Below are positions 27,307 to 35,023 of a stretch of DNA of 64,000 bases, one piece after another. Every line of letters starts with the position of its first letter. Within the stretch, counting starts at the first letter, position 1. The position numbers were made by a program, and so were the translations under genes. The stretch comes from a virus: positions 64,001-128,000 of IMG/VR virus record IMGVR_UViG_3300042307_001176. The stretch is one strand, 5' to 3'. The notes beneath the pieces are model-generated. The model was given only the letters and a program-made list of their open reading frames with translations, did no database searches and was not told where the DNA came from.

Positions 27307-27383
27307 TCTAAAAACATTTTTTTTATAATAGAAAAGTTCTATATTTGTGAAACAAAATAACAAAGAGAACATATAATACTCAA

Positions 27384-27443
27384 ATGAACAAAACAATTAA
27401 CATATTACCTATATCATTAAGACCGTCGTCAAGACGATCCTAA
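27384..27443 (+). CDS. leader peptide 1 (MNKTINILPISLRPSSRRS) of the tRNA operon 1 attenuator
   Basis: Follows TATATTTG (27340); 3' part is ATA/TCN/AGA/CCN codons matching the downstream tRNAs. Confidence 0.8.
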   Translation: MNKTINILPISLRPSSRRS

Positions 27444-27524
27444 AGGTCCTATGTTAATAAAAAATAATCATTAACTAAACCGGGACCTTTAAAAGTCTCG
27501 GTTTTTTTTTGTGTTCTTTGACAT
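27441..27524 (+). promoter_or_regulatory. attenuator 1: antiterminator, terminator and boxA
   Basis: taaaggtcct (27441-50) pairs with gggaccttta (27482-91); terminator aaaccgggac/gtctcggttt plus T run; GTTCTTTGACAT at 27513-24. Confidence 0.8.
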
Positions 27525-27540
27525 GTTGGATTATAAAATT

Positions 27541-27630
27541 GGAGAGTTGCCAGAGCCAGGCTTAATGGATCAGTCTTGAAAACTGACGTAGCGAAAGTTA
27601 CCGGGGGTTCGAATCCCTCACTCTCCGCCA
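27541..27630 (+). tRNA. tRNA-Ser(TGA)
   Basis: Cloverleaf, tcagt-cttgaaa-actga, long variable arm, encoded CCA. Confidence 0.95.
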
Positions 27631-27633
27631 ATT

Positions 27634-27707
27634 GGTCCCGTAGCTCAGCTGGATAGAGCAACGCCCTTCTAAGGCGAAGGTCGAAGGTTCGAATCCTTCC
27701 GGGATCA
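27634..27707 (+). tRNA. tRNA-Arg(TCT)
   Basis: cgcc-cttctaa-ggcg; T arm gaagg-ttcgaat-ccttc. Confidence 0.95.
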
Positions 27708-27713
27708 CACAAA

Positions 27714-27872
27714 GCCCTCTGCCTAGCGCTGGGTATGGATCGAAGATAGAATATGCCTCTACAACGTAGACAGTTAGAATATTTCGGTATTCTTTAATGA
27801 TATGCACACTTATTCTCTAAATCGTGGGTTAGCACAGTTTGTATGTTCTGGGGATATTTAAAGACATACAAT
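27714..27872 (+). ncRNA. unidentified structured spacer RNA in tRNA operon 1
   Basis: Hairpins tgccta/tgggta, tctac/gtaga, agaatat-ttcg-gtattct, ttgtatgt/acatacaa; no plus-strand ORF in the track. Confidence 0.35.
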
Positions 27873-27874
27873 TT

Positions 27875-27947
27875 CGGGATGTAGATCAGTTGGTAGATCG
27901 CCTGGTTTGGGACCAGGAGGCCGTCAGTTCGAGTCTGGCCATCCCGA
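27875..27947 (+). tRNA. tRNA-Pro(TGG)
   Basis: cctgg-tttggga-ccagg. Confidence 0.95.
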
Positions 27948-27954
27948 CATCAAT

Positions 27955-28028
27955 AGAGGCGTAGCTCAATTGGTTAGAGCACATGCCTTATACGCATGCG
28001 GTCACGAGTTCGACTCTCGTCGTCTCTA
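27955..28028 (+). tRNA. tRNA-Ile(TAT)
   Basis: catgc-cttatac-gcatg. Confidence 0.9.
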
Positions 28029-28032
28029 CTTA

Positions 28033-28106
28033 GGTCCCTTAGCTCAGTAGGTTAGAGCAACTGACTCATAATCAGTAGGTCCACGGTTCGAGCCCGTGAG
28101 GGACCA
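28033..28106 (+). tRNA. tRNA-Ile2(CAT), lysidine type
   Basis: actga-ctcataa-tcagt; GGTCCCT acceptor resembles bacterial Ile2 rather than Met. Confidence 0.8.
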
Positions 28107-28167
28107 CTAAATTTTAAAGTCTTTAGGAGAACAAAAGTTCATGCTGGTTCAGATCCAACCTCTTGTA
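28107..28167 (+). pseudogene. decayed class II tRNA 3' remnant, probably Leu(TAA)
   Basis: ctaaa/tttag stem with a TTAA-containing loop, variable arm gaac-aaaa-gttc, T-arm-like gctgg-ttcagat-ccaac, discriminator A; no D arm. Confidence 0.4.
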
Positions 28168-28189
28168 TTTTTTGGATATATAATAAATC

Positions 28190-28561
28190 ATGAATGATCA
28201 TATTAGAATATCCGGACTCGGTATAGAAATATACAAAAATGATATACCAGGAGTGAGATGGAATAAAGCTCAGACTTTTGCAGAATTTCTTAAAGATGGG
28301 TGGAGGTTGCCTACATTAAAAGAACTTGCTTTAATAAAAACACTAAGGGATGTTGGAGGCATAGGAAGATTTCCTGCGGAATATTCGGATTTTTCTGATT
28401 CATATTATTGGAGCGGAAAAGAAGGAGAAGCTGCCACTCTAAGAACTCAATTAAAAGACGGAAGTAGTAGTTATGCTTATTACTTTGATGTGGCTAAAGG
28501 AATTTCTTCACATAGTAAAAAAGCATACGATCTTAGGGTTAGGTTTGTCAGAGATATATAA
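28190..28561 (+). CDS. DUF1566 (Lcl C-terminal)-like domain protein
   Basis: W..A...GWRLPT.KEL...YYWS...RVRFVR. Confidence 0.75.
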   Translation: MNDHIRISGLGIEIYKNDIPGVRWNKAQTFAEFLKDGWRLPTLKELALIKTLRDVGGIGRFPAEYSDFSDSYYWSGKEGEAATLRTQLKDGSSSYAYYFDVAKGISSHSKKAYDLRVRFVRDI

Positions 28562-28564
28562 TGT

Positions 28565-29416
28565 ATGGCAACAACAAGACCTTTTTCGTATAATCCAACG
28601 CAATCAACAATTGCTGGAACTACTAATTTAGGTACCATATGTATAGGAGTATCTGATTTAGACTATGCTGCTAGCCCTGGAGGATTAACGTGGTGGATGG
28701 GACCGGATGAAGATAATTCTTATGTAGTATGCAAGGATGTACCAGCTCAAAATTTCCCTACTCCGTTAGGAAATATAGGCAATGTACAATTTTGGAGATG
28801 CACTAATACAGATTTAGCATTTAGAGATATGGTATCTACAATAAGTGGTACTACACAAGCATCGGCTTCAGCAGCTAGTGATTGGTTAGCATCTAATAAC
28901 TATTGGACTAACAGAAATCCATATCTTGCAGGTCTATATAAAACAACTTACTCTGGATATTTCGCAGATTCAGTTAGTTTCTTTGCAACTGCAACTCCTC
29001 AAGCATTTGGAACAAACCCAGCTACTTCTGTACAAACTACTGCAATATCAGAAGCAGCTAGTGGTGATGGTGATTATTTTAGTTGTCAATGGTTGGGTTA
29101 TTTCAGTCCGACTACTACTCAAACTTATACATTTTACACCAACTCGGATGATGCATCTTATGTGTGGGTTGGAGCAAATGCGATATCTGGATTTACTACA
29201 GCAAACGCAACAGTCAATAATGGAGGTGCTCATGGTCCTATAGAGGCATCAGGTTCTATAGATCTAACTGCAGGAGTTTATTATCCTATAAGAATTCAAT
29301 TCGGTGAAGCCGGCGGAGGTGATGTACTTACTTTCAATTATTCAACACCAACGATAGCAAAAACAACTAATGTAACAGGATTAGTTTTCTATAATACATC
29401 AACTAACGGATTCTAA
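28565..29416 (+). CDS. putative virion fibre/decoration protein with PA14 domain
   Basis: W.GYF.P...YTFYTNSDDASYVW...YYPIRIQFGE.GGG. Confidence 0.75.
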   Translation: MATTRPFSYNPTQSTIAGTTNLGTICIGVSDLDYAASPGGLTWWMGPDEDNSYVVCKDVPAQNFPTPLGNIGNVQFWRCTNTDLAFRDMVSTISGTTQASASAASDWLASNNYWTNRNPYLAGLYKTTYSGYFADSVSFFATATPQAFGTNPATSVQTTAISEAASGDGDYFSCQWLGYFSPTTTQTYTFYTNSDDASYVWVGANAISGFTTANATVNNGGAHGPIEASGSIDLTAGVYYPIRIQFGEAGGGDVLTFNYSTPTIAKTTNVTGLVFYNTSTNGF

Positions 29417-29421
29417 AACAT

Positions 29422-34164: not shown

Positions 34165-34237
34165 AGTCTCTTAGCTCAGTTGGCAGAGCGTTTGGTTTAC
34201 ATCCAAAATGTCGGGGGTTCGAATCCCTCAGGGACTA
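34165..34237 (+). tRNA. tRNA-Val(TAC)
   Basis: tttgg-tttacat-ccaaa. Confidence 0.93.
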
Positions 34238-34239
34238 CA

Positions 34240-34321
34240 AGATTAGAAGCGGCGAATGGGGTTACTTCTCAGAACTTTTAAATTTGACCAAAAAACACCT
34301 CGCTCAAATATTCTCTAATCT
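34240..34321 (+). ncRNA. Y-RNA-like structured RNA, copy 4, within tRNA operon 3
   Basis: agattaga/tctaatct; GAAGCGG; GGGGTTACTTC; AACAC; AATATTCTC, same architecture as the 24042-24436 copies. Confidence 0.7.
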
Positions 34322-34326
34322 AAACT

Positions 34327-34398
34327 GGGGATGTAGCTCAGCGGTAGAGCTCTCGACTGTTAATCGATAGGTCGCTGGTTCGAATCCAGCCTTCCCCG
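34327..34398 (+). tRNA. tRNA-Asn(GTT)
   Basis: tcga-ctgttaa-tcga. Confidence 0.93.
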
Positions 34399-34403
34399 CA
34401 ATT

Positions 34404-34485
34404 CGGAGTGTTGAGCAATTGGCTGCTCAGCTGACTGTAAATCAGCCGCCTTAAGGCATTGGGGGTTCGAATCCCTCCGCTCCGA
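34404..34485 (+). tRNA. tRNA-Tyr(GTA)
   Basis: gctga-ctgtaaa-tcagc; long variable arm. Confidence 0.92.
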
Positions 34486-34505
34486 CACAGTGTATCTGTA
34501 AGATA

Positions 34506-34558
34506 TAGAGACGGACAGTCCGACGGTTGAAGTGGATGCGTAATTCCACACGTCTCTA
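34506..34558 (+). ncRNA. unidentified small structured element
   Basis: tagagacg/cgtctcta closing stem with internal gtgga/tccac hairpin. Confidence 0.35.
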
Positions 34559-34561
34559 AAT

Positions 34562-34637
34562 GCGATAGTAGCTCAGTTGGTAGAGCACCGTCCTTCCAAG
34601 TCGGGGGTCGCAGGTTCGAATCCTGTCTATCGCTCCA
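34562..34637 (+). tRNA. tRNA-Gly(TCC)
   Basis: cttccaa loop; U73 and CCA. Confidence 0.93.
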
Positions 34638-34638
34638 C

Positions 34639-34711
34639 GGGGTAGTAGCTCAATTGGCTGAGCGCTTCCTTTGCAAGGAAGAGGATGTGGGTTCAAGTCC
34701 CATCTACTCCA
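34639..34711 (+). tRNA. tRNA-Ala(TGC)
   Basis: cttcc-tttgcaa-ggaag; G3:U70. Confidence 0.95.
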
Positions 34712-34718
34712 CTTATAT

Positions 34719-34791
34719 GGCGAGTTAGCTCAGTTGGTAGAGCGTTGGAATCATACCCCAAAGGTCGGCAGTTCGAACCTGCCACTCGCTA
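34719..34791 (+). tRNA. elongator tRNA-Met(CAT)
   Basis: GGCGAGT acceptor; atcatac loop. Confidence 0.85.
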
Positions 34792-34793
34792 CT

Positions 34794-34870
34794 GTGACGG
34801 TAGCTCAGTTGGTTAGAGCGTCTGATTGTGGTTCAGAAGGTCGGGGGTTCGATTCCCCTCTGTCACCCCA
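34794..34870 (+). tRNA. tRNA-His(GTG)
   Basis: tctga-ttgtggt-tcaga; C73 and CCA. Confidence 0.93.
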
Positions 34871-34871
34871 T

Positions 34872-34944
34872 GCCTTTGTAGCTCAGTTGGTAGAGCACTT
34901 CACTTGTAATGAAGATGTCGCAGGTTCAATCCCTGTCAAAGGCT
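34872..34944 (+). tRNA. tRNA-Thr(TGT)
   Basis: cttca-cttgtaa-tgaag. Confidence 0.95.
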
Positions 34945-34950
34945 CTAAAT

Positions 34951-35023
34951 TGTCCTGTGGTGTAATTGGCAACACGTCTGGTTTTGGACCAGAAGAGTCC
35001 AGGTTCGAGCCCTGGCGGGACAT
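34951..35023 (+). tRNA. tRNA-Gln(TTG)
   Basis: tctgg-ttttgga-ccaga; U1-A72. Confidence 0.93.

Follow-up and report, generated by a model that had tools for sequence, protein, structure and literature searches.

Putative ribosome-mediated attenuators precede three tRNA operons of a Bacteroidota phage and are written in the codons of their own tRNAs

Why do large phages carry sets of tRNA genes, and when are these genes used? Phage tRNAs are thought to offset a mismatch in codon usage or the loss or cleavage of host tRNAs, and phage T4 carries its tRNA cluster together with Pnk/Rnl repair. We examined this question in a 64,000-nt stretch of viral DNA (hereafter the window), which spans positions 64,001 to 128,000 of IMG/VR record IMGVR_UViG_3300042307_001176, a virus record of 154,411 bp with an estimated completeness of 66%. 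Among GenBank phages there is no near-identical DNA, only short tRNA matches. The window contains three tRNA operons, each headed by a short leader open reading frame (ORF) and an intrinsic terminator, and the codons of each ORF match the tRNAs encoded downstream. It is likely, in our judgement, that the leaders are three ribosome-mediated attenuators of the his/thr type, each of which would sense decoding by the tRNAs of its own operon.

ARAGORN identified 24 tRNA genes in the window, all on the + strand and arranged in three clusters (Table 1). A 25th gene, tRNA-Ser(GCU) at 33991-34077, is missed by default ARAGORN but was recovered at a relaxed threshold and by a weak Rfam match of the long-arm type. 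Relatives have tRNA-Ser(GCU) at the same site; this gene brings operon 3 to 16 amino acids, and the 25 tRNAs of the window cover all 20. All three blocks follow a common order of TAnnTTTG promoter-like motif, short ORF, intrinsic terminator, boxA-like motif, and tRNA genes. The stop codons of the leader ORFs end 33, 21, and 25 nt ahead of hairpins 1, 2, and 3, respectively, and the first tRNA begins 28-36 nt past each terminator hairpin. This shared layout and its coordinates had been proposed in a first-pass annotation of the sequence, and the ARAGORN, ORF, hairpin, and motif positions bear them out.

The TAnnTTTG motif of operon 1 is retained, with variation at nn, in five related viral loci (L001, L004, L005, L007, and L008), and at none of the three operons of the window does such a motif occur between the terminator and the first tRNA. 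Counted over the whole genome, TAnnTTTG by itself is not enriched (105 occurrences vs 97 expected); the promoter call therefore depends on position and on conservation in relatives. Two further observations concern the arrays themselves. tRNA-Ser(GCU) partly overlaps the 3' end of a 45-codon ORF (33862-33999) inside operon 3, and the operons contain + strand gaps free of tRNAs at 27709-27874 (166 nt, the same length in L001), 34239-34326 (88 nt), and 34487-34561 (75 nt). Because neither Rfam nor ARAGORN gives a match there, the gaps could be degenerate tRNAs or unknown small RNAs.

Table 1. Features of the three tRNA operons and their leaders, in window coordinates.
Feature	Position	Strand	Remarks
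TAnnTTTG promoter-like motif, operon 1	27340..27347	+	44 nt upstream of ATG
Leader ORF 1	27384..27443	+	19 codons plus stop, ATG start; kept in 5 relatives
Antiterminator 5' strand 1	27441..27450	+	pairs with 27483-27492; overlaps stop codon
Intrinsic terminator 1	27477..27504	+	10-pair stem then T9; -12.9 kcal/mol
boxA-like motif 1	27513..27524	+	core same as Bacteroidota rRNA-spacer 17-mer
tRNA operon 1	27541..28107	+	Ser(UGA), Arg(UCU), Pro(UGG), Ile(UAU), Met(CAU)
TAnnTTTG promoter-like motif, operon 2	31594..31601	+	40 nt upstream of ATG; conserved in relatives
Leader ORF 2	31634..31723	+	29 codons plus stop, ATG start
Antiterminator 5' strand 2	31710..31717	+	pairs with 31749-31756
Intrinsic terminator 2	31745..31769	+	hairpin and T run
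boxA-like motif 2	31783..31794	+	variant, C at position 2, A at position 10
tRNA operon 2	31798..32122	+	Glu(UUC), Asp(GUC), Met(CAU), Leu(UAG)
TAnnTTTG promoter-like motif, operon 3	33209..33216	+	46 nt upstream of ATG
Leader ORF 3	33255..33362	+	35 codons plus stop, ATG start
Antiterminator 5' strand 3	33351..33360	+	pairs with 33394-33403; ends on stop codon
Intrinsic terminator 3	33389..33422	+	hairpin and T run; one compensatory pair, CG in 4 and UA in 3 sequences
boxA-like motif 3	33425..33441	+	exact 17-mer
tRNA operon 3 (whole operon, 16 tRNAs; first 8 listed)	33449..35024	+	Phe, Lys, Trp, Arg(ACG), Cys, Ser(GCU), Ile(GAU), Val
tRNA operon 3, continued (last 8 listed)		+	Asn, Tyr, Gly, Ala, Met, His, Thr, Gln

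Codons were assigned to tRNAs by standard wobble rules, with Met left out, and the match was compared with 200,000 random in-frame windows of equal length drawn from long ORFs of the same phage. In leader 1, 10 of 18 codons are cognate to operon-1 tRNAs (P = 1.3e-4), and 4/4 non-Met species are covered. Leader 2 contains a run of seven consecutive Glu/Asp/Leu(CUN) codons at 31679-31699 (P = 3.5e-5). For leader 3, 30 of the 33 non-ATG codons are cognate (P = 0.003), and all 15 non-Met tRNA species are covered (P = 3.8e-4). Every non-Met tRNA species therefore has a cognate codon in its own leader, a recall of 1.00 for each true pair. Among the six possible permutations of leaders and operons, the true pairing ranks first with a summed F1 of 2.15 vs 1.44 for the runner-up, and all six off-diagonal pairs are non-significant.

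The correspondence extends to isoacceptors. Leader 1 encodes serine with UCN and arginine mainly with AGA, and its isoleucine codons include AUA; for the same three amino acids, leader 3 uses AGY, CGN, and AUY, respectively. Three of the four leucine codons in leader 2 are CUN, the remaining one being UUA. The first-pass annotation had matched Ser/Arg/Pro/Ile codons to operon 1, Glu/Asp/Leu(CTN) codons to operon 2, and 16 amino acids to operon 3, and the P values together with the null off-diagonals uphold this assignment: within the window, the match is confined to true leader/operon pairs and goes well beyond chance. Leader 1 also holds two UUA codons, though no tRNA-Leu(UAA) is detectable after operon 1. 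Relatives L001 and L004-L008 carry tRNA-Leu(UAA) after the tRNA-Met of this operon; at 28108-28190 of the window neither an intact nor a clearly degenerate copy was found, local alignment being weak and relaxed ARAGORN blank.

The terminators provide a second line of evidence. When nascent RNA was folded up to the terminator loop, all three leaders formed a helix of 8-10 bp between the 3' end of the ORF and the 5' arm of the terminator, as the complementarity reported in the first-pass annotation had implied. Each antiterminator helix encloses a small inner hairpin and begins 0-13 nt upstream of the last base of the stop codon. The predicted energies of these helices are -14 to -15 kcal/mol; those of the terminators range from -12.5 to -17. 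When the genome's 20 terminator-like sites are ranked by upstream complement, all three leader terminators fall in the top four, with shuffle P values of 0.007, 0.007, and 0.05 for leaders 1, 2, and 3. Across all fetched phage loci, a significant upstream complement accompanies 61% of 57 distinct tRNA-proximal terminators vs 8% of 356 others (Fisher 5e-19).

Because the antiterminator strand overlaps the stop codon or ends within a few nucleotides of it, a ribosome at the stop would cover the strand, and one stalled at least ~15 nt upstream would leave it free. A terminating ribosome would also be too distant to block the terminator directly, as the stops end 21-33 nt before the hairpins. This spacing bears on a reversed, pyrBI-like logic, in which a ribosome close behind the polymerase would prevent the terminator from folding, so that good decoding would yield more tRNA in a positive feedback. 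A passage of PMC4824070 describes suppression of a terminator by a ribosome near it, and such logic would likewise predict a codon match. Here, however, the hairpins lie out of the terminating ribosome's reach, and the conserved ORF-end strand complementary to the 5' arm would be left unexplained; we consider the reversed logic very unlikely.

In the attenuation model, a Bacteroidota-type promoter would start transcription, and ribosomes would translate the short leader ORF. A ribosome reaching the stop codon would cover the ~10-nt strand, the terminator hairpin would form, and the polymerase would halt before the tRNA genes. A ribosome that stalls earlier, at slowly decoded codons of the operon's tRNAs, would leave the strand free to pair with the 5' arm, thereby blocking the terminator and allowing the tRNA operon to be transcribed. 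The host-rRNA-type boxA would probably then load Nus factors and spare the untranslated tRNA transcript premature termination. As new tRNAs build up, the leader would again be read fast and the operon would switch off. Translation of the leaders and the direction of the switch are inferred, and negative feedback of this kind most simply explains why a leader would be composed of codons that the downstream tRNAs read. If true, it would constitute a direct, testable feedback on the tRNA pool, and the leaders would be sequence-readable sensors of which tRNAs the phage expects to run short.

The same anatomy recurs in related phages. We gathered 81 viral loci through a HAD-domain protein encoded between operons 2 and 3 and through another neighbouring protein; relatives of the HAD-domain protein were found in 150 stretches of viral contigs, and 80 of these loci were kept. 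All three leader types persist in L003-L008 and L026, where the HAD-domain protein is 78-93% identical, and in L001, found via the other neighbouring protein (75% identical). Leader ORFs are present in every relative examined. Indels of 12 nt and 3 nt occur within them and keep the frame, leader 2 has in-frame indels only, and 1-nt indels appear just past the stop. Leader 3 of L007/L008 has undergone two 3-nt deletions and differs at many positions, and still encodes all 16 amino acids of its operon. More generally, the leader peptides diverge freely while their amino-acid sets are retained. The conservation on which the first-pass annotation had made its reading depend is thus seen in both the presence and the frame of the ORFs, which, with indels inside them confined to multiples of 3, appear to behave like translated frames.

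The alternative helices are maintained as well. The operon-3 antiterminator helix is 100% paired across 7 sequences, three one-sided changes keeping the pairing, and RNAalifold recovers the operon-1 antiterminator helix in 6/6 sequences, with one compensatory pair among close relatives. In operon 2 of L007/L008, the 5' arm and 3' arm of the terminator and the leader strand have changed together, a three-way compensatory change that was described by eye because the MAFFT alignment puts both sequences out of register in the terminator.

Leader/operon matching is also found in distant phages. One distant group, in which the HAD-domain protein is ~65% identical, has a 37-codon leader with a start like that of leader 3 ahead of differently composed arrays, and the 3' part of this leader holds an 11-nt copy of the 3' arm of its own terminator. 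Scanning viral contigs for the boxA 17-mer yielded over 100 loci, and in at least 39 a tRNA lies no more than 80 nt away. Many of these loci combine a leader ORF with a terminator and a complement that matches it, although the peptide and arm sequences are entirely different; each leader family carries a copy of its own terminator's 3' arm. At three loci (L117, L160, and L178), a tRNA-like gene lies between the terminator and boxA.

For a quantitative comparison, leader ORFs were picked blind to the tRNAs, as the longest ATG ORF ending at the complement, and a non-redundant set of 25 leader/operon pairs from other viral contigs was compiled (leaders <40% identity). A permutation test of leaders against operon anticodons had been set beforehand in the first-pass annotation, and by this test the match holds. 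Operon species had a cognate codon in their own leader at a recall of 0.959 vs 0.770 when shuffled, and the fraction of leader codons that are cognate (precision) was 0.604 vs 0.479. Neither value was reached in any of 100,000 permutations (z ~7, P<=1e-5), a P value that overstates independence, as the pairs share some ancestry; with the window's clade removed, z is still ~6. Since phage tRNAs track phage codon usage, random coding-sequence windows from the same locus served as a second null. Under this null, 13 of 20 leaders reach P<0.05, with combined P values of 3e-22 (F1), 1e-19 (coverage), and 2.5e-10 (precision), and the match is therefore not a by-product of genome codon usage. Cognate codons make up 62% of the ORF body vs 48% of the tail beside the switch (P=4e-4).

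Could the leaders instead be general translation-status sensors, reporting whether ribosomes are available and moving, for instance after host shut-off or abortive-infection damage? Leader 3, which samples 16 amino acids, would respond to almost any slowdown, and where there is no clear anti-antiterminator (1:2) helix, a lack of translation would by itself yield read-through. Leaders 1 and 2, however, are narrowly written in the codons of their own operons, with non-significant off-diagonal matches, and the permutation and same-locus controls reveal operon-specific matching in many phages. We regard general sensing as unlikely.

Within the distant group, where reduced arrays give a mixed picture, one case is striking. 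At L021 (12992-13055 region), a reduced array serves Trp, Ile, Phe, Gly, Asp, and Gln, and 8/8 substitutions that separate the L021 leader from the family consensus go to these six amino acids. In the cultured Cellulophaga phage phi4:1 (NC_021788.1, L317), tRNA blocks are preceded by terminators and by two leader-like ORFs, at 3714-3782 and 4674-4757. The first, which is unannotated, contains 11 consecutive codons for the six amino acids of the following 7 tRNAs. The second lies inside gp075, annotated as a hypothetical protein, and has no ATG; its start may be GTG. As the layout is the same in cultured Cellulophaga baltica / phage phi4:1, the model is testable at the bench.

These data also speak to the simplest dismissal of the leaders, namely that they are small or chance ORFs with terminators of their own, that the tRNAs are transcribed from elsewhere, and that the match is coincidental or compositional. 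The ORFs are indeed tiny, TAnnTTTG lacks enrichment across the genome, a promoter motif follows the terminator in some phages, and one of the phi4:1 ORFs falls within an annotated hypothetical protein. Against this stand a codon match that far exceeds chance whether the null is drawn from the same genome or the same locus, an antiterminator specific to tRNA-proximal terminators, the lack of a promoter motif past the terminators of the window, and peptides that diverge freely while their amino-acid sets persist. We consider it extremely improbable that leaders and operons are unrelated neighbours.

Several observations weigh against attenuation by operon-specific decoding, in addition to the shared ancestry of the permuted pairs. 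No convincing anti-antiterminator (1:2) helix, and no conserved one, was found in full-length minimum-energy folds, in which the antiterminator strand pairs weakly with upstream ORF segments. Covariation in close relatives is sparse, with one compensatory pair each in the operon-3 terminator and the operon-1 antiterminator and one-sided changes only in the operon-3 antiterminator helix, and is too sparse to prove the helices alone. The total cognate count of leader 2, 9/28, is marginal (P=0.07), its signal lying in the run of seven. Several other reduced arrays of the distant family keep the consensus leader unchanged. TAnnTTTG alone lacks genome-wide enrichment, and it occurs between the terminator and boxA in L086, L104, L105, L173, L185, and L192, where attenuator-independent transcription would follow from a promoter motif past the terminator. 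The ribosome-mediated attenuation put forward in the first-pass annotation nevertheless has in silico support from the layout, the antiterminator geometry, the codon match, the relatives, and the permutation test.

Beyond the terminator, each operon has a boxA-like motif resembling the core of the E. coli rrn boxA. The 17-mer occurs in many Bacteroidota genomes, typically once per rRNA-operon contig of 5-6 kb, and its location in these operons is the 16S-23S spacer; in Pedobacter hartonius (L200), it lies at 2545-2561, between tRNA-Ala (2401-2474) and 23S rRNA (from 2714). Sixty-eight of 122 bacterial occurrences follow a tRNA with none downstream, and a single one (1/122), on a 780-bp contig of a metagenome-assembled genome, stands ahead of tRNAs. 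In the variant motif of operon 2, position 2 is T in L005 and L026, and L007/L008 carry both canonical letters.

Antitermination in rRNA operons involves boxA with NusB/NusE, NusA, NusG, and SuhB (PMC3177189, PMC4807359). The phage motif matches an element found once per Bacteroidota rRNA operon, between tRNA-Ala and 23S rRNA, but differs in that it heads tRNA arrays as an add-on to an attenuator and that its binding of Nus factors is putative. Sitting past the terminator, boxA cannot act on it and is thus not the switch itself. Its most likely role would be to keep polymerase from terminating early on the long, untranslated tRNA transcript.

What would set off the switch during infection? Amino-acid starvation is unlikely to be what triggers it in nature, since additional tRNA would not make up for a missing amino acid. 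Shortage of or damage to tRNAs fits better, on circumstantial evidence from the neighbouring genes. An ORF at 32124-32693 (+), 2 nt past the tRNA-Leu of operon 2 and probably co-transcribed with this operon, encodes the HAD-domain protein noted above, with the PF18143 HAD domain of 'Swiss Army Knife' RNA-repair proteins (E=4.7e-23); tRNA arrays are present in about half of the 80 kept loci that encode a relative. An RNA ligase domain (PF09414, E=1.5e-24) is located at 8571-9053 (+) of the window (G000:C1:72571-73053), in an open frame of 343 aa. RtcB was not found. The HAD-domain protein and the ligase together suggest a capacity for RNA repair.

A broader proposal is that demand-sensing circuits for tRNA supply are widespread in Bacteroidota phages, with stalling on the leader detecting that particular host tRNAs are lost or cleaved (anticodon nucleases and host shut-off being possible causes) and the phage supplying replacements, to which the operon-2 response would add an RNA-repair-type gene. 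The evidence leaves this wider proposal evenly balanced in our view. If true, it would link phage tRNAs to host defences that target tRNA.

The closest known relatives of these leaders are the enterobacterial leader-peptide attenuators, among them trpL, hisL, and pheL and the multivalent leaders of thr (Thr/Ile) and ilvGMEDA (Ile/Val/Leu). The phage leaders share with them a short ORF rich in sensor codons (putatively translated here), a terminator ahead of the first structural gene, an antiterminator that excludes this terminator and has a 5' strand predicted to be covered by a ribosome at the ORF end, and the sensing of several amino acids by one leader. They differ in that they precede tRNA genes, not biosynthetic enzymes or synthetases, so that the sensor would read the activity of its own products; in that up to 16 amino acids would be sensed, in a Bacteroidota phage; and in that they lack a clear 1:2 anti-antiterminator and have an rRNA-type boxA after the terminator. 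Rfam models gave nothing above noise in the leaders, the Thr_leader model reaching 22.8 bits against a cut-off of 55 bits (E=0.89).

T-box riboswitches bind uncharged tRNA directly, without an ORF, and regulate synthetase and amino-acid genes, mostly in Firmicutes. Like the phage leaders, they are 5'-leader terminator/antiterminator switches that answer to the state of a specific tRNA; the phage leaders, in contrast, have an ORF and precede tRNA genes, and the T-box covariance model gave no match at E<=1 in 27000-35300. With T4-type tRNA sets, the phage shares a large complement covering 20 amino acids and RNA-repair-type genes in the same genome. Accounts of such sets explain the purpose of the tRNAs, whereas control of their transcription by sensing of demand is absent from them as far as the literature was searched. 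Our literature search, whose full-text coverage did not extend to all journals, found no tRNA operon, phage or bacterial, described as being under leader-peptide or attenuator control, and we know of no other case of leader-peptide attenuation controlling tRNA genes. By class, this would be leader-peptide attenuation whose regulated products are tRNA genes, outside the classical scope of biosynthesis and synthetase genes.

The sequence between operons 1 and 2 has features of its own. An intergenic element of ~80 nt at 30547-30625 (+) is closed by a terminal stem, and in L001 it lies (~8845-8930) between boxA and the tRNA-Glu of operon 2; its fold is not unusual (z = -1.0). Two tandem paralogous genes, at 28557-29713 and 30362-30733 (+), are 84% identical in their 5' parts, and the first has GLEYA/PA14 domains. 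At 30362-30508, a copy of the start of gene 30643-31227 is joined to a copy of the paralogue junction, a mosaic that looks like a recombination scar.

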